DNA from: Cyclobacteriaceae bacterium
Lineage (GTDB): Bacteria > Bacteroidota > Bacteroidia > Cytophagales > Cyclobacteriaceae
Length of the DNA: 64,000 nt
Direction: 5' to 3'
NCBI GenBank assembly: GCA_029858965.1
Contig: JAOUDZ010000008.1
Span: 19,971 to 83,970, forward strand
Below the pieces are notes generated by a model that was not told the origin of the DNA, made no database searches, and saw only the letters and a list, made by a program, of their open reading frames with translations. The position numbers were made by a program, and so were the translations under genes. The stretch's first letter is position 1. Each line of letters starts with the position of its first letter. This document shows positions 1 through 64,000 of the stretch, in pieces.

Positions 1-1
1 G

Positions 2-232
2 CGCAATTTGATACTTGACTTTCTCAGTGATCTTAGATCGCAAGGAACAACCATCATCTATTCCTCCCATGTCCTGGAGGAAGCTGAAAGGCTCTGTTCG
101 CATGTAGGTATTATCAATGAAGGAAAATTGATGTCAGCCGGTACACTTTCGGCCGTAATGGGAAAACATCCTGATTGCCAGAACCTGGAACAGCTGTTCC
201 TGAAACTTACCGGTAAAAATATTCGTGATTGA
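2..232 (+). CDS. ABC transporter ATP-binding subunit, C-terminal part (begins before the window)
   Basis: H-loop context IIYSSHVLEEAERLC and C-terminal LEQLFLKLTG typical of ABC-2 exporter ATPases; frame is open to the window edge; stop overlaps the permease start. Confidence 0.9.
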   Translation, partial: RNLILDFLSDLRSQGTTIIYSSHVLEEAERLCSHVGIINEGKLMSAGTLSAVMGKHPDCQNLEQLFLKLTGKNIRD

Positions 233-1500
233 AAATTCTTGCTACCATATACAAAGAGTTTTTATTGCTGATTCGCGACCCTGGTGGAATGGCCTTAATC
301 TTTATCATGCCCCTGGCACTGGTCATCGTTATGGCGCTAGTTCAAGATGCTCCTTTTCGTGACTATCAGGAATTTAGAATCGATGTACTGTTGATTGACA
401 ACGACACCGATTCATTGAGCGCCAAGCTGAAGGAAGCTTTCAATGCCTCCCGGAATGTAAACCTTATTATTTTGAGCGATACCGTGGAAGCCACAGCATT
501 AGTGCGCTCAGGGAAATACAAAGCGGCTATTATCATTCCCAAGGACGCAAGTAATACCTTGCGGAAAAACACACGACAGCTAATCACATCTATTTTTTCA
601 AATTTTGGATTAGCAGCCGATCAAACAGATTCCGCTGAACTTCCCATCGTTACATTAGAAATTCTTCTTGATCCTGCCATAAAAGCCAACTTTCAGCAAA
701 CGCTTTCCGGCGCTATTGAAAAAATTATTGCCACCGTTCAAACCGGATGGGTTCTGGAAGAACTCCAGAATCAGCTGAGTGAAGGTAATGCAGAGGCTAA
801 GAAGATCGATTTTGATTTATCACAAATCATACAAGTGAGCCAGCGGTACGCATCTGAGAATAAATATCAGGGACTCGTACTTAATTCCGTTCAACATAAC
901 GTACCCGCGTGGACGATGTTCGCTATGTTCTTTATTCTTTACCCGCTGGCAGGGAACTTCATTAAAGAGCGTGAAGAAGGGAGCATGCTTCGGCTTCGCC
1001 TTATTTCGGGGTCCCAATTTCCCATAATCAGTGGCAAGTTTGCATTCTATTTCATCGTTTGCCTGGTGCAATTTCTGATGATGATTCTGGTAGGAATATT
1101 TGTGATGCCCTTCCTCGGACTTAGTAAATTGGTACTGGGCGAAGACGTAGTTCTTATTTTTATCACCGCTTCCTGTGTAGCAATGGCCGCTACGGGATAT
1201 GGTATCCTTATCGCGGTTTACTTCCGCACAGCACAACAAGCCCTTTCCTTTGGATCCATATCCGTCGTCATTCTTTCTGCCATTGGAGGTGTCTGGGTCC
1301 CAGTTTACGTAATGCCGGAAATTCTCCAAACCCTGAGCCAATTTTCTCCAATGAGTTGGGGGTTAGAATCCTTTAATGATCTATTTTTGCGACAGGCATC
1401 ATTCCAAACCATTTTGCCAAATTTATTAAGACTCGTGGGTTTTGCGCTGGTAACAGGAACTGCAAGCATAATCGTTAACAATGCAAGAACAGTTGAGTAA
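229..1500 (+). CDS. ABC-2 type exporter permease
   Basis: N-terminal KEFLLLIRD followed by a TM helix, a large extracytoplasmic loop, then ERE-G-RL and several TM helices; coupled to the ATPase. Confidence 0.9.
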   Translation: MKILATIYKEFLLLIRDPGGMALIFIMPLALVIVMALVQDAPFRDYQEFRIDVLLIDNDTDSLSAKLKEAFNASRNVNLIILSDTVEATALVRSGKYKAAIIIPKDASNTLRKNTRQLITSIFSNFGLAADQTDSAELPIVTLEILLDPAIKANFQQTLSGAIEKIIATVQTGWVLEELQNQLSEGNAEAKKIDFDLSQIIQVSQRYASENKYQGLVLNSVQHNVPAWTMFAMFFILYPLAGNFIKEREEGSMLRLRLISGSQFPIISGKFAFYFIVCLVQFLMMILVGIFVMPFLGLSKLVLGEDVVLIFITASCVAMAATGYGILIAVYFRTAQQALSFGSISVVILSAIGGVWVPVYVMPEILQTLSQFSPMSWGLESFNDLFLRQASFQTILPNLLRLVGFALVTGTASIIVNNARTVE

Positions 1501-1521
1501 TTGAACTGTAAAAATAAAGAC

Positions 1522-1794
1522 ATGCAACAATCAATAGAAGAGCTTACTGCGGAATTACGTGAACAACTGATCGAACAGCTAAATCTGGAGGATATCATTC
1601 CGGAATCTTTTGATGAAAACACACCGCTGTTTGGTGAAGGTCTGGGATTAGACTCTATTGACTCCCTTGAGCTGGTGGTACTACTGGATAGAAATTATGG
1701 CATCAAACTGAAAGATCCGAAAGAAGGGCGCGCTGTTTTTTACAGCATCCGTTCCATGGCAGAGTACATTCACAATAACAGAGCGCAAGCATGA
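1522..1794 (+). CDS. Acyl carrier protein (flexirubin/aryl-polyene type)
   Basis: LFGEGLGLDSIDSLEL phosphopantetheine motif; small and acidic. In-frame ATG at 1522 preferred over the TTG at 1501. Confidence 0.92.
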   Translation: MQQSIEELTAELREQLIEQLNLEDIIPESFDENTPLFGEGLGLDSIDSLELVVLLDRNYGIKLKDPKEGRAVFYSIRSMAEYIHNNRAQA

Positions 1795-2999
1795 GCCAAC
1801 GCGTATTCATCACGGGATACGGCATCATCACTTCCATAGGCAAAAACACACAAGAGAATTTTCAATCGCTTACACTCCGAAGATGTGGATTTGGTGAGCT
1901 AAGCATACTGGACACAATTCATCAAAAAGACCTGCCTGCTTGTGAAATTAAGCTTCACGATCAGGAACTGCGTGAAGCAGCCGGAATAAAAACAGAAAAA
2001 GGATATACGCGCACAGCCTTGTTGGGATTACTGGCACTCCAGGAGGCCATCCATTCGGCAGGACTTTCGCTTACAGACATTAGAAACTCCGGCTTAATTT
2101 CAGCCACAACAACGGGGGGAATTCGCGAATTTGAGAAGTTTTTCTATCAGATAACGGATCTTCAACAGCAAGGTGATTTTGATCAATTCACTGATACCGC
2201 AAACCCGGGAGAACACTGTGAGCGAATCGCAGATCATGTTGGTATAAGACAATGTATCGCAACCGTGAGCACGGCATGCTCTTCTTCTGCGAACGCGATA
2301 ATGCAGGGGGCCCAATTAATAAAAGCGAAAAAAATTGACCGTGTAATCTGTGGAGGTGCCGAAGCATTATCCAAATTCACGGTTAATGGTTTTAATTCAC
2401 TCATGATCGTGGATCCCGAGCATTGCAGACCTTTTGACAATACGCGCAAAGGGCTTAACCTGGGCGAGGGTGCTGCTTACCTCGTGCTGGAATCAGAAGC
2501 TTTGGTAAATCAAAAACGAAGAAAGCCGCTTGCCGAACTCAAAGGGTATGGTAATGCCAATGATTCATTTCACCTGACTGCATCGTCACCGGAAGGTACT
2601 GGCGCTTTTAATGCAATGAATTTAGCTTTATCCGTTGCAGGCTTCTCAGCAGCAGATGTTGACTATATCAATGCGCATGGTACAGCTACAGAAAATAACG
2701 ATCTTTCAGAAGGTATGGGAATACAGCGGCTTTTTCGAGAACAGGTTCCTTACTTCAGCTCTACAAAACCTTATACCGGTCATACACTGGCAGCAGCAGG
2801 GAGCATTGAAGCCGTCTTTTGCATGATGGCCCTTCAGCATCAAATTATCTGGCCAAACCTCAATTTTAGCAGCCAAATGCAGGAAATTACTATTTCACCC
2901 GTAAGAGAAATGATGCAAAACACAGTATTGAAGAATATTTTATCAAACTCATTCGGATTCGGAGGCAATACCTCCTCCCTACTCTTTTCATTGGTATAA
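1791..2999 (+). CDS. Beta-ketoacyl-ACP synthase (FabF/FabB-like, catalytic triad intact)
   Basis: STACSSS (Cys), INAHGT (His), KPYTGHTL (His), C-terminal SNSFGFGG. Confidence 0.93.
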   Translation: MSQRVFITGYGIITSIGKNTQENFQSLTLRRCGFGELSILDTIHQKDLPACEIKLHDQELREAAGIKTEKGYTRTALLGLLALQEAIHSAGLSLTDIRNSGLISATTTGGIREFEKFFYQITDLQQQGDFDQFTDTANPGEHCERIADHVGIRQCIATVSTACSSSANAIMQGAQLIKAKKIDRVICGGAEALSKFTVNGFNSLMIVDPEHCRPFDNTRKGLNLGEGAAYLVLESEALVNQKRRKPLAELKGYGNANDSFHLTASSPEGTGAFNAMNLALSVAGFSAADVDYINAHGTATENNDLSEGMGIQRLFREQVPYFSSTKPYTGHTLAAAGSIEAVFCMMALQHQIIWPNLNFSSQMQEITISPVREMMQNTVLKNILSNSFGFGGNTSSLLFSLV

Positions 3000-3003
3000 C
3001 ACT

Positions 3004-4083
3004 ATGGATGAAAGGCAGCACTACTACATCAATGGAATAGGGATAATTTCTCCACAAAAAACGTTTGAGCATGATCAATTCTTGCAAGAAATTTGTGCCT
3101 ATGAAAGCAATGTGCTCACTTGCATAATTCCCAGTTTCAAAACCTATATTAGTCCAGGCCAACTTCGAAGATTAAGCCGCATGCACCGCATTGGTTTAAC
3201 TGCAGCAACAATGTGCCTTCGCGATGCAAATGTTCAGGTTCCCGATGGGATTATCACAGCATCAGGATATGGTTTTCTGGAGGAAACTGAAAAGTTCTTA
3301 ACCGAGATGCTGGAACGGAACGAGAAGCAACTTACACCCACCTATTTCATACAAGGCACATACAATGCCCTGGCAGGATTGATTGCGCTATCCACAAAAT
3401 GCCTGGGGTACAACAACACCTATGTAAGCAAGGGGTTCGCTTTTGAAAATGCGCTTCACGATGTGATGTTGCAACTCTCCGAAAATAGCACATCCAACTT
3501 CCTGGTGGGGAGTTCCGATGAAGCTGCGAAAGTACTCTATGCAATTGGCATGCGTGCGCAATACTATAAGGTTGAAAACATTCCCAATTTGAAACTTTTT
3601 GACAGTCAAACTACGGGAACTATTCAAGGTGAAGGGTCTGCGTTCTTCATGGTATCTGGTGCCCCATCCGCCACAACGTGGTGTGCCATTAAAGATCTGC
3701 AAATGGTATATACGCCCCAGCATGAAGGGGAGTTTAACCTCGCACTGACTTCTTTCCTGGAAGTTAACAAGATCAAACTTTCAGAAATAGACGTGTGGGT
3801 AAGCGGGGCAAGTGGTAATATAGAACACGACCACTTACTACATCATTTGGAAAAAACGGTACTCCAGCAAACACCTCAGATACGCTTCAAACATTTATGC
3901 GGCGAGTATTGTACCGCCGTTTCATTTGGGCTTTGGATTGGAGCAAGTATTTTGAAGAAGCAATCAATCCCCGACATTCTCAAAGTCAGTACCCCTGAAT
4001 TTTCATTAGAAAAAATAGAGACGGTTCTGATTGTGAATCAGTACCTGAACAGAAACTATTCATTTGTATTGTTGAAGAAATAA
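3004..4083 (+). CDS. Ketosynthase-like partner lacking the catalytic Cys (chain-length-factor-like)
   Basis: KS-like motifs (LRRLSRMHRIG, PTYFIQGTYNA, FKHLCGEY) but no TAC(S) active-site motif; lies directly after the KS gene. Confidence 0.75.
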   Translation: MDERQHYYINGIGIISPQKTFEHDQFLQEICAYESNVLTCIIPSFKTYISPGQLRRLSRMHRIGLTAATMCLRDANVQVPDGIITASGYGFLEETEKFLTEMLERNEKQLTPTYFIQGTYNALAGLIALSTKCLGYNNTYVSKGFAFENALHDVMLQLSENSTSNFLVGSSDEAAKVLYAIGMRAQYYKVENIPNLKLFDSQTTGTIQGEGSAFFMVSGAPSATTWCAIKDLQMVYTPQHEGEFNLALTSFLEVNKIKLSEIDVWVSGASGNIEHDHLLHHLEKTVLQQTPQIRFKHLCGEYCTAVSFGLWIGASILKKQSIPDILKVSTPEFSLEKIETVLIVNQYLNRNYSFVLLKK

Positions 4084-4211
4084 CAAAATCGTTATCGGTA
4101 GTCAGCGCTTACCTAAATCTAAGTCCAGGCGTATACTGCGGAATAGGGACCGCAATGTGGAGGAAATTAATGAAAGAGGCTGAACATCACAGTAAGGCCT
4201 ACCCTAATTGA

Positions 4212-7200
4212 TCAGAATCCATCGTCACTTTCTTTCTTCTTCAGGTCAAATTTCTTGATAGCAGAGGTTCCATCGTAGAGATTATAGGGAACGTCATTCT
4301 CATAATATTGCTTGCGAAATCGGTTGATGAATTCTAGTGTCTCATCATCGCTTCCAGGAATAAATGCTACCTCGCCCATTTTAGCTTTTCCGGCGTTTGT
4401 TTTTTTGGAGATGATTGAATTAAATTCTGGATTTGAAGAGTGCACTAATAGTCTGTTATCCTCAAGGCCAAAATAGTACCATGCCTCTGGCGAAGCTTTG
4501 ATAAAGACATGAAATACCGGAGCCCCATCTTCACTTTCTTTGATTTCCATGAAGCCTTCAAAGGCACCGTTTATATCGTTTCTTGCTATGTTAGACATCC
4601 CAAGTTTTCCCTCACTAAAGAAACTTTTGTGTTTGGGCGACCACTTTAGATTTACATTAGAGAACACAAGTGGTTTCGTCAATGGTGCAATTGTACCCAG
4701 CGAAACATAAGCTTGCAGGCTTCGTTGTTCAAAATCCTTTACTGTGCGTTCACCAACGATATCAGCAATTTTATAGAGCAACTCAGTCTGATCACCCAGT
4801 CCTTCCTCGACACCTTCATTTTTTATTACATCTGTAATTTGCTTTGCCATGAGCTCAAAGGCCTGAATCGGGATATTTGAGTCTACCATCAGGAAGGTAT
4901 TCATTCTGATTTCGTTTGTTTCCAGGTCACCTTGTCCCAATGCCGAGGCTGTTATATCAAAATCCTTTGATCCGTTAATAAGGGTAACTGGTCCTTCAAA
5001 CCTTACCTGCATGGTTTCATCCTTATAGGAAAAAACCTTTCCGGAAAGCTTATTCCCTGCGGCTTTTTCCATGTCTTCAATTCTAAACTCACGTGAAGCT
5101 GTATCATAGTAGAGTTTTCCCTGCGGCACAAAGAAGTCTTCGTCGTATTCCGATTTTTTATCATTCAAAAAGGTGATGTAAAGATCATTATCACCACTTC
5201 CTACATGCAAGCCGGCATTGACACGTTTTCCCCCTTCCGTGACTGCGCTGTTGAAGTCAATGAGCACATCTGTTTCGTCTCCGGTTTGTTCATACGCTAT
5301 CCACGTATCATAATTCTTGATTTTCTTAATATCCAACTTCACATAGCCGGAAAGCTGCAGGGCAGGCCGCGTCGCATACATAATCATATCTCCTTTGTAA
5401 AACATACCGGCACCCAAAACAAGGTTTGCAGCATCTGAAACCGATCCTGTACCAACGGTTTGCATGGTAGCAAGTGACGTATTTCTGCGCGACGATCTCT
5501 TCGACTGTTCCAGTTGGGTTATAGGTTCCAGATGAAAATCAGTCATCTTAATGGCAAATGTGTCCTTCAGGAAGTTTACATATTGATAGGTAGCATATCC
5601 GGTAAACTCCTTCCGTGAAATAACATCGACGACCCCTTCGGTCAGACGGTGATATCCATTGAGTGTATCCAATACTATCGTTGTATTGCTTAGTGTTCCG
5701 ATTTTTGCATTCTCCAAAATCAATACCTCATTATTTTCCGGTGTAATTTTAGCGTCCGCAACAATGATGTAGGGAATTCCGCTCACTTTCAACTGTTGCG
5801 TTTTTAGATCATACTCTGCACTCTCCGCGTTGAAGTTCAGCGAGTCCAAGTCTTCACGGGTGGTGTAGAAATACGAGTTTTCCAGTGGCACATCGGGATC
5901 TTTGCTCATCGTAATCTTTTGTGCAGTAAGATCCCAGCGCATGGTGGGGATAGAAGTTTTGAATTGCGCAAAAGGAAAAGCAATTGCTGCCACACCTTTC
6001 ACTTCGGGACTTATATCGGCATAGTTTTGTTCAAGGTTGAATTTAAGGCGAATGTCGTCACCTTGGAGAAGTGGTTTTTCGGGATCTGGTGAATTGACTT
6101 TATACCGTGCATGCCGTGCTCCAAAATCTTTGGAACTAAAATTCATATTACGGGAAATTAATTCGGTGCCGCGGGTCTCCAATTTTCCTGCACCGGCTAC
6201 CCCTTCTTTGGATATGGTAACGGTGCCCCGCATTTGAGCCGACCCATTATAAAAACTAAAGGGATCATCCGTGTTCTTCATTTTCATCTCATCGCGCTTC
6301 GGATACCACTTCATCTCAAAGTCGGTAAGCTCGGCTTCCGGAAAGTTAACGGCACCAAATTGCTTTTCCGAAATACTCGCTTCTCTCCCCTTGGATATAA
6401 CAGAATCGGGATAAAAAATAAATTCATTTGCTTTAACGGTAGCGGCCAGATATTCAATGGTACCGGTGCCACGAAGTCCTCTGCTATTCATGGTAAGCCC
6501 GCCAGTTATCTTGCCGTCACCGTTGTACAATTGATAGCCGCTGCGTGGAATTGTGTGATCAAATCCCAATGATTTATCGGGTTGTGTATGTAATTTTTCC
6601 TTAAAACTTGGAAACATACCACTTGACACAAACGTCCCACCAAAGTTAATGGCGGCAGGGTCTGCATTATTCAAGCTGTCCAGCTGAAAAGGCGGAACTA
6701 CAAAAAACATCGAACGGTCATATACCCCACCCAATACTTCCTCGCGATCGAAATAGATCACTCCACCAGATGTTGCATCAAGCCTTGGATAATGCGCTAC
6801 CTTTTCCTTTCCGGATTTATTATTGGCTTTGCTAATAAACAACGTACCAGAAGATTGTGATTGGTTACCCAAACCACCCACTGCCGCAGTTGCTGAATCT
6901 GTAGCGACCATGGAATTATTTATCTTCCTTCGCGTAGATTGTCCTCTGGCATTTGTCTCTGTCACGAAAAAGTTAATAGAGTCAATATTCGTCAGGCTGA
7001 TAAAAAAGCTGTCGTACTTCAGCGTAAAACCCTTCCCACTGATCTCAAAGTTACCGGCATTGATCGTTCCATCGAACTGAATATCCCGATTCTGAAGTAT
7101 TGTAATAACACTGCTGTCCGGCTCAATGCGTACATTCAGTGAATCGCTTACCTTAAATTCCTCGACGCCGCGTACTATCATATATCGCTTCTGAAAATTC

Positions 7201-9011
7201 AAGCTGGCGTTAGGGAAACTGTCTATCACGGAATGAATCTTCAGGTTATCATAATCCATTTCGCCCCGATATGCTTTGTAAATCAAGATGGCCTTTTCTT
7301 TTACCTGGACAAGATCAGTCTTTTGAAAGTAGTTTACTAACCCCTTGTCATTCAGAAACTCCAGGGCGGCCTTGATATCGCGAATGTTCTTATTTGAAAA
7401 CAGTGCCAAATCGCCAGAATAGAATTCTCTCACGTTATACTTAATACAATAATTTGCAACCAATGCCACTGGGTGGAAGGAAAATCCCTGTCCGGAAAGT
7501 AACCTGAAATCATCGGGGTCGTAGAAGTCTATCGATTCAATAATCATAGGCACCGTATTGCGCCCACCATCTGTTAGAATATTCAAACTGTCAGAAAACA
7601 GATCCCACTTGATCACATCAGCTGCAAAATCAACATTAAAAAAGGTAGCAGAATAAGGTGTATGCTTCATTCCTCCCTTATCTTTTTGTAGCAAAAGCCT
7701 TTGAGTGCTATCATCTCCGAACGTGTATTTCATGCGCACCAGCGGGTGAGTTAAGGAATCATTCCCAATAGGAATAATGATGCTCGATTTTTGTGCTGAG
7801 ATGGTAGAGTCAGTAAATAAAAAATCCGTGGAGCGCGTAATAAATTTCTTTTCCCCATTATGATACACCACAATTGTCGCGGGGTCACCAGAAACAGATT
7901 CGCTTGAGATTTTATTCCCTGTAAGCGAGAAACCTCCCGTATACTCAACATTTTCATCGCCGATACCCTGAATAGAAAGCGTGCTTTGAAAAGATCTGAA
8001 TCGAGGATAACTTGAAGGAACAGAATCTTTCCGCGCAATAGACTTGAACTCAAATGTTCCCGGAATAAAGCCCGGTGTTTTACCGACATAGTTAAATTTC
8101 ACCAAATCAGACTTCAACTCAGGCTTTTTGATACTGAAACTGTATGTTGTAAAATTGCACATTACACTATCCGGACTCAGGCCGGCAGGTGACCAATCGA
8201 AAGTTCCCTCCTCACCAATAAATTGATTCAACCGAAACGACATTAACCCTTTTGTGTTTTTCAAAAAAACAGAGTCATACTTTGTTATGAAATTCAACGT
8301 TACACGACTGAAGCGAATCACAGCTCCCTCGGCAAAAGGTAATGGCGGAGGGTCCATATATAAAGGGGTATCAACATAAACTGAATCAAAAGGTTGGTCA
8401 TCAAAATCAGATTGGGCACCATCAAAACTTTCGGATTCCGTCGACTCGTCGACATCCTGTTCATCCACTGAAGGTGAGCTCGGTGCATCGTATAAATCAA
8501 CCACAGGTGCCGGCACTATATAATCAAAGGAATAGTCATCATCAACAGCATAAAGCCTAAAGAAATTCTCGTAATGGAGCGCATGATGTTGGAAAAAAGT
8601 CCTGCTTACCGACAGGAAATTAGATACCTGCGCTGTCGGCTCATTTTCCAGCACAAGTCCGGCGACCCGAAGAAACGCAGTGATTTTTCCGGGGTCTGCG
8701 TTTTCGATAGAAACAGCGTTGCTGATGGCGCCGAAATAATTGAGCATGTATGGGCGAAGCGGGAATTTCTTTTTCTTCATCAACCTGAGCTGCTGTTGAA
8801 CAACAATCTGCTGGTCTGCACCAAGGCTTCCCCATGCAGTAGCAAAGCCATTCCCAACTGCCACGGCATCAGCATTGCGCGTTTTTTCCAGCATCATCCT
8901 CACACTGTCGACAAAACTGGATGGAATGGGGGGTTCTTGTTTCTTTTGTGCACTAACCGCAACAGCTGAAAGAAGAAAAAGAATAAAAAAGTATGTTTTA
9001 ATGTCCTCCAC
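4212..9011 (-). CDS. Large hypothetical envelope protein, 1599 aa, with signal peptide
   Basis: Uninterrupted 4.8-kb ORF; hydrophobic N-terminus ending AVSA; beta-strand-rich composition; no motif I can assign to a named family. Confidence 0.8.
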   Translation of the reverse strand: MEDIKTYFFILFLLSAVAVSAQKKQEPPIPSSFVDSVRMMLEKTRNADAVAVGNGFATAWGSLGADQQIVVQQQLRLMKKKKFPLRPYMLNYFGAISNAVSIENADPGKITAFLRVAGLVLENEPTAQVSNFLSVSRTFFQHHALHYENFFRLYAVDDDYSFDYIVPAPVVDLYDAPSSPSVDEQDVDESTESESFDGAQSDFDDQPFDSVYVDTPLYMDPPPLPFAEGAVIRFSRVTLNFITKYDSVFLKNTKGLMSFRLNQFIGEEGTFDWSPAGLSPDSVMCNFTTYSFSIKKPELKSDLVKFNYVGKTPGFIPGTFEFKSIARKDSVPSSYPRFRSFQSTLSIQGIGDENVEYTGGFSLTGNKISSESVSGDPATIVVYHNGEKKFITRSTDFLFTDSTISAQKSSIIIPIGNDSLTHPLVRMKYTFGDDSTQRLLLQKDKGGMKHTPYSATFFNVDFAADVIKWDLFSDSLNILTDGGRNTVPMIIESIDFYDPDDFRLLSGQGFSFHPVALVANYCIKYNVREFYSGDLALFSNKNIRDIKAALEFLNDKGLVNYFQKTDLVQVKEKAILIYKAYRGEMDYDNLKIHSVIDSFPNASLNFQKRYMIVRGVEEFKVSDSLNVRIEPDSSVITILQNRDIQFDGTINAGNFEISGKGFTLKYDSFFISLTNIDSINFFVTETNARGQSTRRKINNSMVATDSATAAVGGLGNQSQSSGTLFISKANNKSGKEKVAHYPRLDATSGGVIYFDREEVLGGVYDRSMFFVVPPFQLDSLNNADPAAINFGGTFVSSGMFPSFKEKLHTQPDKSLGFDHTIPRSGYQLYNGDGKITGGLTMNSRGLRGTGTIEYLAATVKANEFIFYPDSVISKGREASISEKQFGAVNFPEAELTDFEMKWYPKRDEMKMKNTDDPFSFYNGSAQMRGTVTISKEGVAGAGKLETRGTELISRNMNFSSKDFGARHARYKVNSPDPEKPLLQGDDIRLKFNLEQNYADISPEVKGVAAIAFPFAQFKTSIPTMRWDLTAQKITMSKDPDVPLENSYFYTTREDLDSLNFNAESAEYDLKTQQLKVSGIPYIIVADAKITPENNEVLILENAKIGTLSNTTIVLDTLNGYHRLTEGVVDVISRKEFTGYATYQYVNFLKDTFAIKMTDFHLEPITQLEQSKRSSRRNTSLATMQTVGTGSVSDAANLVLGAGMFYKGDMIMYATRPALQLSGYVKLDIKKIKNYDTWIAYEQTGDETDVLIDFNSAVTEGGKRVNAGLHVGSGDNDLYITFLNDKKSEYDEDFFVPQGKLYYDTASREFRIEDMEKAAGNKLSGKVFSYKDETMQVRFEGPVTLINGSKDFDITASALGQGDLETNEIRMNTFLMVDSNIPIQAFELMAKQITDVIKNEGVEEGLGDQTELLYKIADIVGERTVKDFEQRSLQAYVSLGTIAPLTKPLVFSNVNLKWSPKHKSFFSEGKLGMSNIARNDINGAFEGFMEIKESEDGAPVFHVFIKASPEAWYYFGLEDNRLLVHSSNPEFNSIISKKTNAGKAKMGEVAFIPGSDDETLEFINRFRKQYYENDVPYNLYDGTSAIKKFDLKKKESDDGF

Positions 9012-61282: not shown

Positions 61283-62746
61283 CTATTTGAAAATCTTATC
61301 CAAAATTTTAGCTGAATTCAGACACATCGGAATGCCCGCACCCGGGTGAACGCTTCCGCCCACAAAATAAAGCCCTTTAACCTGTCTGCTGAAATTCGGA
61401 TGTCTCAAAAAGGCGGACATTTTGCTATTCGAACTATTGCCAAATACTGCTCCAAACGCGCTCCAATAACGCGTACGGACATCCGGTGGCGTCATAATTT
61501 CCTCTGTAAGAATTCTTCCATCGAGTGAAATTGAAAGCATTCGATTAATTTTGGCTAGCACATTCTTTCGCGTGCGCTTTACGATCTCTTCCCAGTCCTG
61601 CCCCTGTTCGTTGGGCGCCGTGACGAGTATGAACCAATTTTCGCAGCCTTCCGGCGCATCCCCGGGTACTTGCTTTGAAGTTATGCAAATGTATACGGAA
61701 GGGTCATCACAAATTGTATTGCCGCTGAAAACTGCGTCATATTCTTCCCGCTCATTTTTCGCAAAGAGCATATTGTGCATACCCAACTGAGGATGTACAC
61801 CCTGTACACCCCAATAAAAGCTTATGATGGAACTGGATTTTGGCTGATTTAACAGTCTTTTGGGTTTCTTAACACCGGGCAAAAGTTTATCGTATGTATA
61901 GTACACATCCATATTGCTTACTATCCGGTCATAGTTAATTTCTCTTCCTTTCACACGTACGCCAATGGCATTCTTATCCTTCATCAGAATTTCTTCAACA
62001 AACGAATTGAAGTGAAAAGTCACACCCATATCTTCAGCCAACTTCACCAAGGCTTTTACAATGGCATACATACCGTGCTCGGCTACATACGTCCCGTTTT
62101 TTACAACCAGATGTGGAATTAAGTTCAGCGTTGCAGGGGCGACCAGTGGGTTTGACCCAACATAAAGTGCGTATTTATTAAATAATTGGAGTAACCGTGG
62201 GTCGCGGAAGAATTTTCTGTTCCCCTCCTCCATCGTTTTAAATGCGTCGATCTTATTGAAATTGGCGAGACCAACTGCTACCCGTCTGGTGAAATAGTTC
62301 CGCACCAGATGAAGCGAATTCTCAATGAAGACTTCATTTATCAGGTTGTATTTATCTTCAACATCCCGCAAGAACCTGTAAAAATCGTCTTTAGAATCAA
62401 TAGTTTTTTCTTCTACCTCTTGGGCAAACCGCTCAACATCAGAATACAGATGGATACACGTTCTGTCTTCAAAGAAATATTTGAAGGCCGTATCAAGGCG
62501 AGAATACTGAAAGTAATCGCGGGGGTTTTTTCCGGACAAGGTAAACAATTCATCAATCAGGTGCGGCATGGTGAACACAGATGGGCCTGTATCAAAACGA
62601 AACCCGCCTGAATAGCTCTCCCGAAGTTTGCCCCCTGGATAAGTATTCGTTTCAAATACATCGACCTTTAGTCCCTTTGCAGCCAACCGGATGGCTGCGG
62701 CTAACCCTCCAATACCAGAGCCAATAACTGCACACGTTTTCAACAT
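61283..62746 (-). CDS. crtD: Carotenoid desaturase, 1-hydroxycarotenoid 3,4-desaturase-like
   Basis: IGSGIGG, YPGGKL, FRFDTGPSVFTMP, FLRHPNFS, GGSVHPGAGIPMCL; the FLRHPNFS tail fits Bacteroidota CrtD better than CrtI. Confidence 0.72.
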   Translation of the reverse strand: MLKTCAVIGSGIGGLAAAIRLAAKGLKVDVFETNTYPGGKLRESYSGGFRFDTGPSVFTMPHLIDELFTLSGKNPRDYFQYSRLDTAFKYFFEDRTCIHLYSDVERFAQEVEEKTIDSKDDFYRFLRDVEDKYNLINEVFIENSLHLVRNYFTRRVAVGLANFNKIDAFKTMEEGNRKFFRDPRLLQLFNKYALYVGSNPLVAPATLNLIPHLVVKNGTYVAEHGMYAIVKALVKLAEDMGVTFHFNSFVEEILMKDKNAIGVRVKGREINYDRIVSNMDVYYTYDKLLPGVKKPKRLLNQPKSSSIISFYWGVQGVHPQLGMHNMLFAKNEREEYDAVFSGNTICDDPSVYICITSKQVPGDAPEGCENWFILVTAPNEQGQDWEEIVKRTRKNVLAKINRMLSISLDGRILTEEIMTPPDVRTRYWSAFGAVFGNSSNSKMSAFLRHPNFSRQVKGLYFVGGSVHPGAGIPMCLNSAKILDKIFK

Positions 62747-62935
62747 TACAAACTTATTTCGCGAGCGCTAAGCATTAAAACTTACAGTGTTTTGAATTCG
62801 CCTCACCTTACCAAGTGCATAAATAAAGCACTAAAGAATAGTGATACCAAATTCAAACTGACTTTATCTCGCAATCACATCTACATTCCTTATTATTACT
62901 TTATTTTGACGACCTTAAATCCCGATTTATCCTAT

Positions 62936-63193
62936 ATGAATATACCGGAGAAAGCCGATATCAACCAAGCACTGCTGGCATTTTTGAAGACCACTATCGT
63001 GGAAAAGGATGTTGAAATATTGGCCCAAACACCCTTTAGGCAACTGGGTGTCGACTCGCTATCCATCATTGAACTGGTGCTCTTTATAGAACGGAGGTTT
63101 CAGGTGGTAATACCGGAAGATGAATTGACACCCGAAAACCTTAATTCTGTGGAATCTCTAACAGCTTGCACAGTTAGACACCTCCCGAAATGA
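62936..63193 (+). CDS. Stand-alone acyl/aminoacyl carrier protein
   Basis: GVDSLSIIELV phosphopantetheine Ser motif and ELTPENLNSV tail; ATG 62936 preferred over 62792. Confidence 0.88.
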   Translation: MNIPEKADINQALLAFLKTTIVEKDVEILAQTPFRQLGVDSLSIIELVLFIERRFQVVIPEDELTPENLNSVESLTACTVRHLPK

Positions 63194-64000
63194 CAGCCCA
63201 AAACGAAAAAGTATACCTGACGGAAGGCGACTGTTTTATGCTGGCGCTTGAAAAAAAGCATATGCATCAAACCGGCATCTCCAATAATACATGCCGGTAT
63301 TTGCTCACTGTTGACGGATATATAGCGCATGAGGAATTCCGGAAGAAGATCAACAACAACCATGACCTTACCTGGCTGGCTTCTTTGGTTCCGGAAAAAA
63401 GATTTCCCCTTTCGCTGCCACGATGGAAGGTATCGGCCCAAACCGCCGTTGTGCCGGTATGGATACATGAAAGCGAAGAATTTTTGCCCGCTGCCATCGT
63501 AGCGCGGAAGATTTCAATCGATGCCCCTCCCAGCCTCACGTTCGACATCATCTATCGGTCAAATGGTGACTCCACTTTGTTATTTTCCTGGCATCATTTA
63601 CTCATGGACGGGCATGGTGCCATCCTTCTACTTAAGCAAATCGCAAAAGACATCGCCACCACATCACCCTATTTGTACGATCACGACAAACGCGCCCTTC
63701 TTGGATTGCGATCTTTCTGGCAAGCTGCTCGCGCTAAATTTTTTGTCGACCGGGTGTCAAAAAAACCGCTCAGCGGAATCATGGATCTCAACAGAAAGAT
63801 CAACAAAACCCAAAAGATAAAGATTCTGAATTTCAGCAAAGACGAAACCATAAAAATGGATGAAATAGCACCCCGATTGGGTGCACAATTTGGAAGAAGT
63901 CCCTTTTACCTGGCCTGTGCAGCACGAACCGTCTGCGCTATACTAAAAAAAAGAGATATCAAGGTCCATGATTTCTGGATCCCTGTGCCCCGTAACCAAC
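63190..64000 (+). CDS. Condensation-domain/CoA-dependent acyltransferase-like protein, partial (continues past the window)
   Basis: Hand translation from ATG 63190 gives 270 stop-free codons to the edge; WHHLLMDGHG with HHxxxDG at 63592-63612; ATGA overlap with the carrier protein stop. Absent from the ORF track because there is no stop codon in the window. Confidence 0.8.
   Translation, partial: MTAQNEKVYLTEGDCFMLALEKKHMHQTGISNNTCRYLLTVDGYIAHEEFRKKINNNHDLTWLASLVPEKRFPLSLPRWKVSAQTAVVPVWIHESEEFLPAAIVARKISIDAPPSLTFDIIYRSNGDSTLLFSWHHLLMDGHGAILLLKQIAKDIATTSPYLYDHDKRALLGLRSFWQAARAKFFVDRVSKKPLSGIMDLNRKINKTQKIKILNFSKDETIKMDEIAPRLGAQFGRSPFYLACAARTVCAILKKRDIKVHDFWIPVPRNQ

Follow-up and report, generated by a model that had tools for sequence, protein, structure and literature searches.

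What product do a stand-alone carrier protein and a free-standing condensation-like enzyme serve when their genes diverge from that of a carotenoid desaturase? The question is raised by the end of a 64,000-nucleotide stretch of DNA (G000:C151:19971-83970; this whole stretch is the window referred to below) from a Cyclobacteriaceae bacterium, whose genome of 5.1 Mb in 233 contigs comes from a sediment or estuary metagenome assembly. The original prediction, made from the window, was that the two genes begin a dissociated thiotemplate operon, comparable to Dlt-type systems and perhaps involved in carotenoid acylation. We find that they open a gene cluster that is conserved yet uncharacterised in Bacteroidota, and we are inclined to think that this cluster acylates and sulfates a membrane polyene pigment, probably a hydroxy-carotenoid, and then exports the product.

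The carrier protein, the condensation-fold enzyme and their operon

The carrier gene runs from an ATG at 62936 through 85 codons to a TGA at 63191-63193, as read from the sequence and the list of open reading frames (ORFs), and its product matches the PP-binding family PF00550 (E 2.5e-9, 37.7 bits, cut-off 20.8). An alternative TTG start at 62792 would give a product of 133 residues; because the orthologues are only 81-88 residues long, the ATG is the likelier start. The carrier stop overlaps the ATG of the next gene at 63190 (ATGA), as the original prediction had noted, and the two genes are translationally coupled. The second frame stays open for 270 codons up to the window edge, with S133-W-H-H-L-L-M-D-G141 inside it, and the contig beyond the window completes it at 436 residues, so that the feared truncation does not occur. 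Its homologues, 151 down to E 1e-87 in a word-indexed search and 298 representatives at E<=1e-30 in an exhaustive profile search, indicate a real gene; those that carry a name are all called 'hypothetical' or 'NRPS condensation-like uncharacterized protein' (NRPS, nonribosomal peptide synthetase). We refer to the product as the C-like protein.

The AlphaFold2 (AF2) model of this protein (pLDDT 87, pTM 0.88) has the complete two-lobed, V-shaped architecture of a condensation domain, to which Foldseek matches it at E 5e-19, and structure comparison with VIA places it at Z 23-30 from structures of the condensation superfamily, the matches at Z 24-30 spanning about 390-400 residues. The best match is the dehydratase AzeD (29.9), and the others include the CDA starter C domain (CDA-C1; 27-28), the fuscachelin PCP-C structure (27), PapA5 (1q9j; 24.9), SgcC5 (24.2), and WS/DGAT enzymes (6chj, 7nxg; 23-24). 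The enzyme with an HHxxxDG motif that had been proposed from the window is thus borne out by the modelled fold, which alone would not decide the subfamily. At the level of sequence, the Pfam Condensation family PF00668 reaches 16.3 bits, below its threshold of 30.6, and this match is local to residues 105-153; an NCBIfam scan of the protein gave no match, and phmmer against the PDB gave nothing significant, PapA5 (1q9j) not being among the matches at E<=10. A profile of 22 C-like sequences has bacitracin synthase 3 as its best PDB match (E 3.5e-6), 1q9j again not being among the matches at E<=1, and the WS/DGAT families PF03007 and PF06974 have no match in the full protein (E<=0.01) or in its first 270 residues (E<=1). 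The C-like protein is therefore a very divergent subfamily of the condensation superfamily.

Within that subfamily the active-site motif is well kept. All 22 aligned sequences have W134, H136, and D140. Across 44 homologues each variant of the motif keeps H136 and D140, and with one exception W134 as well, whereas Asn often replaces the first His and Ser or Ala sometimes the Gly; an invariant H136/D140 pair with a variable first His is what a second His acting as catalytic base would lead one to expect. Could the protein nevertheless be no transferase at all, and instead modify a carrier-bound substrate by dehydration, epimerisation or cyclisation, with another enzyme freeing the product? That AzeD is the nearest structure and that heterocyclisation and epimerisation domains score nearly as high would favour such a role; on the other side, the His-Asp pair typical of transferases is invariant, the free-standing ester-forming enzymes PapA5, SgcC5, and WS/DGAT match at Z 23-25, and the cluster conserves neither a thioesterase nor any other enzyme that would free the product. 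We regard this role as very improbable.

Past the window edge follow genes for a PF12831 flavoprotein, an oxidoreductase binding flavin adenine dinucleotide (FAD), and for an adenosine monophosphate (AMP)-binding ligase. The acyl/peptidyl carrier protein (ACP) and C-like genes overlap by 4 nt, the C-like and FAD genes by 14 nt, and the FAD and AMP genes by 4 nt, and the four therefore form one translationally coupled operon. The dissociated thiotemplate operon with its own ligase thus materialises; the search of the next kilobases did yield the adenylating or acyl ligase, but no MBOAT, SGNH or glycosyltransferase gene. A sulfotransferase gene converges on the ligase gene, the two stop codons overlapping at G000:C151:87131-87134 (L002 4226-4229), which leaves no space for an intervening terminator, and a gene for an outer-membrane protein of the DUF5686 family lies beyond it.

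The ligase has both the N- and C-terminal AMP-binding domains (PF00501 and PF13193). Where the adenylation (A) domains for amino acids carry FDxS, it has PMAYH (aligned residues being FDGS in LgrA and LFHVHG in oxalyl-CoA synthetase); it lacks the A4 Asp and has the A10 Lys (GSGKIKR), and its closest solved relatives are oxalyl-, feruloyl-, malonyl-, and o-succinylbenzoate-CoA synthetases and luciferases. Since PMAYH replaces FDxS, as in acyl-CoA synthetases, the substrate is probably an acid without an alpha-amino group, either fatty or aromatic, and the enzyme is an ANL ligase of the acyl- or aryl-acid type rather than an amino-acid A domain. The comparison with Dlt-type D-alanylation consequently fails on mechanism: besides the non-amino-acid type of the ligase, which has no A4 Asp, there is no MBOAT or DltD gene in the host locus, in the annotations of loci L003 and L004, or in the clusters shared by the 49 loci described below.

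The flavoprotein model (pLDDT 90) matches about equally well geranylgeranyl reductase-like proteins, urocanate and fumarate reductases, FixC, Thi4, class A hydroxylases, and carrier-dependent halogenases. An assignment of function by fold was given up, the Foldseek and VIA matches being just generic flavoenzymes with two dinucleotide-binding motifs, and an Atlas search with the protein found only unnamed PF12831 clusters.

The sulfotransferase is a clear member of PF13469 (110 bits, cut-off 27). Its motifs GHxRSGTT and KSPxNTxR are kept in 26 orthologues, the former, which is the 5'-phosphosulfate-binding loop, being conserved at 95% or more, and among PDB sequences it matches only 2z6v and 2zq5. 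Several orthologues are named omega-hydroxy-beta-dihydromenaquinone-9 sulfotransferase (Stf3) by automatic annotation at the Joint Genome Institute (JGI); Stf3 sulfates a hydroxylated isoprenoid side chain or isoprenoid alcohol (PMC7404182). The host genome has a gene for adenosine 5'-phosphosulfate (APS) kinase, and 3'-phosphoadenosine 5'-phosphosulfate (PAPS) should therefore be available. The DUF5686 protein has a signal-peptide-like N-terminus, counted from M31; searches of the Atlas and of the literature returned nothing on the function of DUF5686.

Conservation across Bacteroidota and the link to pigment genes

About 46 related loci emerged when one genome per species was scanned with a degenerate pattern; apart from a few spurious ones, they all belong to Bacteroidota (Chryseolinea, Cyclobacteriaceae, Roseivirgaceae, Reichenbachiella, Chitinophagales, Sphingobacteriales, Saprospiraceae, Crocinitomicaceae, Fluviicola, and Wandonia). 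Gene order, family membership and conservation are direct observations, the order and counts having been obtained by tblastn with six host-cluster proteins and by all-against-all ORF clustering over 49 loci, that of the host included. The recurrent order is CrtZ-like> CrtD-like< ABC-ATPase> ABC-2 permease> ACP> C> FAD> AMP> sulfotransferase< DUF5686>. The ACP gene is present at 35 of the 49 loci and stands directly upstream of the C-like gene in 35; the ligase is likewise found at 35, the FAD oxidoreductase at 30, the CrtD-like gene at 28, the sulfotransferase at 27, DUF5686 at 26, the ABC-2 ATPase and permease at 21 and 20, and the CrtZ-like gene at 19.

The FAD and AMP genes always travel together. 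The sulfotransferase-DUF5686 pair adjoins the C-like gene even at loci that lack FAD and AMP (L019, L021, L023, L026, L038, L044, and L050), at L037 it lies beside the C-like gene with FAD and AMP some kilobases off, and in Reichenbachiella agariperforans it is adjacent; in Chryseolinea the intact pair is 435 kb away, and in Wandonia DUF5686 is 7 kb downstream with the sulfotransferase on a different contig. Sulfotransferase and DUF5686 are thus the partners most tightly linked to the C-like gene. The cluster is rare, its C-like gene occurring in 1 of 401 sampled Bacteroidota genomes, namely that of the host, and in none of 12 searched genomes of the same family. A literature search found no description of the cluster, nor of C-like genes in aryl-polyene clusters.

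How firm is the connection with carotenoids? The divergent neighbour scores 529 bits on NCBIfam NF042421 (cut-off 500), and among the 41 informative loci, those with enough upstream DNA, a CrtD-like gene is adjacent in 28, with orthologues 53-66% identical. Maximum-likelihood trees group the CrtD-like proteins in a clade (28 sequences, 100/100 support) whose members all come from genomes with the cluster, among them the Wandonia and Reichenbachiella copies that are not linked to it; outside this clade fall a CruF-adjacent clade and all CrtDs of 150 randomly sampled genomes. The CruF-adjacent clade contains a second, canonical CrtD of the host (G000:C71:16773-18230, L055 5774-7237; NF042421 777 bits), with CruF directly after it and a divergent CrtZ-like gene before it, and the host genome therefore has two CrtD paralogues from different clades. 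The conserved adjacency postulated from the window accordingly stands, but the identity of the neighbour as canonical CrtD does not, being ruled out by the phylogeny and by the second copy. A standard crt set is found elsewhere in the host, with crtI, crtB, idi, and a cyclase on C152 in addition to the C71 genes. An alignment of the crtD-ACP spacer over 16 loci found no conserved element or operator across orders.

Three further lines bear on the CrtD-like enzyme and its surroundings. First, the genomes of Chryseolinea, a Saprospiraceae metagenome-assembled genome (MAG), and a Roseivirgaceae MAG (G001, G002, and G003, carrying L005, L035, and L025) have no match to CruF (PF04240) or CrtC (PF07143), and the CrtD-like protein is their sole CrtD; since no carotenoid 1,2-hydratase is detectable in them, its substrate there is perhaps not a 1-hydroxy end group, although CruF is present in the host genome, in Wandonia, and at locus L115, so that hydratase absence is not universal. 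Second, a CrtD above the cut-off together with CrtI is found in 10 of 10 other cluster genomes checked as against 19 of 151 in the phylum sample, a contrast inflated by relatedness. Third, the adjacent CrtZ-like genes encode proteins of 160 residues that keep the four CrtZ-type His boxes, including HDGLIH.

The closest association is seen at the Ferruginibacter-type locus L115, where the C-like protein is 29% identical to that of the host and the cassette, with an ABC-2 exporter, is embedded in a complete crt cluster. It is flanked there by a CrtD-like gene and by genes for a cyclase, a CrtZ-like protein, CruF, idi, crtB, crtI, an extracytoplasmic function (ECF) sigma factor, and a MerR/B12-binding regulator of the light-sensor type. 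The CrtD-like protein of this locus lies near the cluster-linked clade without being robustly inside it, and no sulfotransferase was seen in the 19 kb viewed.

A second, independent association with polyene pigments comes from aryl-polyene clusters. Four distant C-like members (200-300 bits) on metagenome contigs, L116-L119, sit in ACP-C-(radical SAM)-FAD-AMP cassettes, some with an inserted gene for a B12-dependent radical S-adenosylmethionine (SAM) enzyme. The cassettes of L116-L118 lie within clusters of the aryl-polyene/flexirubin type, next to genes for ketosynthase/chain-length factor (KS/CLF) pairs, ApeP-like and ApeI-like proteins, a 4HBT thioesterase, LolA, a lipid A-type acyltransferase, an aromatic ammonia-lyase, and B12-radical SAM; the L119 contig is too short to show anything beyond the cassette. 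Identity to the host proteins is 38-43% for ACP (four loci in all; tblastn found none in L117), 25-29% for the C-like protein, 31-33% for FAD, and 31-43% for AMP. The ligase is the most conserved cassette protein and the C-like protein the least, as would fit a common donor and different acceptors.

The proposed pathway and its competitors

We infer the donor, acceptor, product, and chemistry of the pathway from protein families and gene linkage. The ANL ligase would adenylate an acid without an alpha-amino group, fatty or aryl, and attach it through a thioester bond to the carrier's phosphopantetheine arm, and the PF12831 flavoprotein would oxidise, reduce or hydroxylate either the free acid or the tethered acyl group. 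The C-like enzyme, with the invariant second His of xHxxxD(G/S/A) as putative general base, would then take the acyl group off the carrier and place it on a membrane acceptor, at a hydroxyl or, with lower likelihood, at an amine. The likeliest acceptor would be a hydroxylated carotenoid formed with the help of the co-inherited CrtD-like desaturase and, in other genomes, also of the CrtZ-like hydroxylase encoded next to it. The Stf-type PAPS sulfotransferase may sulfate one further hydroxyl, belonging either to the pigment or to the acyl group, and the ABC-2 exporter, adjacent in most other genomes, could with DUF5686 carry the amphiphilic product to the outer membrane. A narrower version, in which the product is a sulfated carotenoid ester of the outer membrane, the cassette is a portable tailoring module for carotenoids and aryl polyenes, and the CrtD-like enzyme has a substrate that differs from a 1-hydroxy end group, is offered more tentatively, as something possible that we would not presume.

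The nature of the donor invites one alternative: an aromatic acid of the 4-hydroxybenzoate or 4-coumarate type, as in starter activation for aryl polyenes and flexirubins, whose ring the flavoprotein would decorate, for example by hydroxylation, before the C-like enzyme esterified it to the pigment and the sulfotransferase sulfated the phenol. The ligase is after all the protein best conserved between carotenoid- and aryl-polyene-type clusters (40-43%, against 25-29% for the C-like protein), the L116 ligase is the only one visible beside an aromatic ammonia-lyase, and the first Foldseek matches of the flavoprotein include class A aromatic hydroxylases and the carrier-dependent halogenases CndH, Bmp2, and PltA. 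Those fold matches are, however, weak and generic (TM about 0.5), the halogenase motif WxWxIP is absent from the flavoprotein, which has GTWPIEEW in its place, no gene for forming an aryl acid is conserved in the carotenoid-type clusters, and by sequence the ligase is equally near to oxalyl-, malonyl-, and fatty-acyl-CoA synthetases and to aryl-acid ligases. An aromatic donor seems to us decidedly improbable.

Several observations weigh against an acylated and sulfated carotenoid. No crt gene lies within 8 kb at 13 of the 41 informative loci (in Crocinitomicaceae, Fluviicola, Wandonia, Reichenbachiella, and others), and at the Fluviicola-type locus L048 the candidate upstream crt genes were rejected, the neighbours being housekeeping CoaD, a nitroreductase, an outer-membrane protein, and an S9 peptidase. 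The host locus has neither an adjacent ABC-2 exporter nor an adjacent CrtZ-like gene, and co-occurrence counts are inflated by shared ancestry. With a dehydratase as the top structural match of the C-like protein, its transfer chemistry stays putative; nothing in the solved structures is close to the flavoprotein (TM about 0.5, Z 18-20 with Foldseek and VIA), whose resemblances span ene-reductases, geranylgeranyl reductase, aromatic hydroxylases, and halogenases. Literature searches found no acylated or sulfated carotenoid reported from Bacteroidota, no carotenoid sulfotransferase or acyltransferase described from the phylum, and no use of the phrase 'carotenoid sulfotransferase'. Expression is only weakly indicated: short near-identical contigs in three estuary metatranscriptome runs touch the crtD-like gene, ACP/C, the C/FAD junction, FAD, AMP, the sulfotransferase, and DUF5686, at a low depth of 2-7 and with DNA carry-over possible.

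The crt-free loci lead to the strongest competitor, in which the product is an outer-membrane lipid, acylated and sulfated but free of carotenoid, such as a hydroxy-fatty-acid or amino-alcohol lipid with these two modifications, and in which the crt neighbours are just co-regulated, for instance in response to light or to oxidative stress. Unusual amino lipids and lipids with sulfur abound in Bacteroidota, no crt gene is nearby at a third of the informative loci, the core that never separates consists of the C-like protein, the sulfotransferase, and DUF5686 and not of CrtD, and the MerR/B12 regulator of L115 points to a light-regulated context. Co-regulation alone would nonetheless sit uneasily with a CrtD-like clade co-inherited with the cluster over at least four orders and kept as a second copy despite the host's own CrtD; moreover, each of the ten other cluster genomes checked has the gene content of a carotenoid producer, and no conserved cluster gene would supply a non-isoprenoid acceptor (a serine palmitoyltransferase-like enzyme or a glycosyltransferase, for example). 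We judge a carotenoid-free lipid unlikely.

Known systems and the host genome

The nearest parallel in design to the proposed carotenoid pathway is mycobacterial sulfolipid-1 (SL-1; Stf0, PapA1/PapA2, FadD23, Pks2, and MmpL8), together with PapA5 and the phthiocerol dimycocerosates (PDIM). In common with that proposal are a free-standing HHxxxDG acyltransferase of condensation fold, a carrier loaded by an adenylating ligase, and transfer of the acyl group to a hydroxyl of an envelope lipid; SL-1 further shares a PF13469-type sulfotransferase in the same pathway and export of the product to the outer envelope. Unlike SL-1, the cluster has no polyketide synthase (PKS) and no trehalose-related gene, has ABC-2 and DUF5686 instead of MmpL, and includes an extra flavoprotein; sequence similarity to PapA5 is undetectable, the phylum is another, and the presumed acceptor is a carotenoid. 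Sulfomenaquinone (S881), made by the hydroxylase Cyp128 and the sulfotransferase Stf3 according to PMC7404182, which cites Sogi et al. 2016, likewise involves an isoprenoid alcohol that is made by a hydroxylase and sulfated by an Stf-type PAPS enzyme to give an envelope lipid; the cluster, however, has no P450, its candidate hydroxylase being CrtZ-like.

The type of product predicted here is known from Erythrobacter, whose carotenoid sulfates comprise caloxanthin, nostoxanthin, and zeaxanthin sulfate, the ring hydroxyl being sulfated by an activity in cell extracts, while the sulfation genes are said to remain 'unexplored' in the words 'remains unexplored' (PMC6627997); these are Alphaproteobacteria, and the products are not acylated. 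Aryl-polyene and flexirubin clusters, with an ApeH-type ligase and an ApeE-type ACP, resemble the cluster in the homologous cassette of L116-L118 and in yielding polyene pigment lipids of the outer membrane, but the cluster is without ketosynthases, dehydratases, and LolA or MMPL genes, and the aryl-polyene/flexirubin clusters of the 400 other sampled Bacteroidota genomes are without a C-like gene. Known carotenoid esterification uses unrelated membrane acyltransferases: CruD and CrtO (for esters of the salinixanthin, staphyloxanthin, and myxobacton type) have other folds, acylate the sugar, and use no dedicated carrier protein. Fatty-acid esterification of a carotenoid derivative is what the cluster is predicted to share with them, the differences being that it has no glycosyltransferase and has a condensation-fold enzyme instead.

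Each of the enzymes can be placed in a known superfamily. What has no description is the cluster, the product predicted for it, the clade of cluster-linked CrtD-like enzymes, and the sharing of the cassette with aryl-polyene clusters. Marine bacteria were recognised decades ago as a source of carotenoid sulfates, whose sulfation genes have yet to be named (PMC6627997); in the narrower version of our reading, the cluster would be the first to supply genes for sulfating carotenoids and for acylating them from a carrier protein. If our reading is right, a stand-alone condensation-fold enzyme with its own carrier, ligase, and flavoprotein would be a new route to decorate membrane pigments, the same cassette in aryl-polyene clusters suggesting a general pigment-tailoring module; 'hypothetical' genes conserved over Bacteroidota orders would gain a function, and the uncharacterised DUF5686 family would tie pigment chemistry to export to the outer membrane. 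The idea is directly testable, since the cluster occurs in cultured strains of Reichenbachiella (R. agariperforans DSM 26134 and R. agarivorans) and Wandonia (W. haliotis JCM 16083).

Table 1. Features of the host locus. L002 is C151:82906-97442.
Feature	Window or contig coordinates	L002 coordinates	Strand	Basis
CrtD-like CrtI-family desaturase, cluster-linked clade, divergent from operon	61283..62746		-	NF042421 529 bits
Divergent intergenic region, 189 bp, presumed promoters of both transcription units	62747..62935		.	direct sequence reading
Stand-alone acyl/peptidyl carrier protein (ACP), 85 aa, LGVDSLS	62936..63193	1-258	+	PF00550 E 2.5e-9
Free-standing condensation-fold acyltransferase (C-like, putative), first 270 codons	63190..64000		+	AF2 fold, motif
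Complete C-like gene, 436 aa	G000:C151:83160-84470, end = window coordinate 64500	255-1565	+	contig sequence past window
PF12831 FAD oxidoreductase (flavoprotein)		1552-2802	+	PF12831 227 bits
AMP-binding ANL ligase	G000:C151:85704-87134	2799-4229	+	AMP-binding 167 bits
Sulfotransfer_3 (Stf-type PAPS sulfotransferase)		4226-5350	- (convergent)	110 bits
CarbopepD_reg_2 + DUF5686 protein		5477-8083, probable start M31	+	DUF5686 153 bits

Recent horizontal transfer was considered and dropped on composition, the GC content of the cluster (0.439) being close to the genome mean (0.440). The best match in the host genome to the cluster-linked exporter is an ABC ATPase and ABC-2 permease pair at the start of the window (1-1434; G000:C151:19468-21404). 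Its permease is 31-36% identical to the cluster-linked ones, as against 37-96% among the cluster-linked permeases themselves, and the pair is a candidate for the exporter of the cluster. The host genome also encodes distant second paralogues of the sulfotransferase (31% identity; G000:C10:138-1118) and of the DUF5686 protein (29%; G000:C212:11000-13510), and a second DUF5686 paralogue is likewise present in three other cluster genomes searched.

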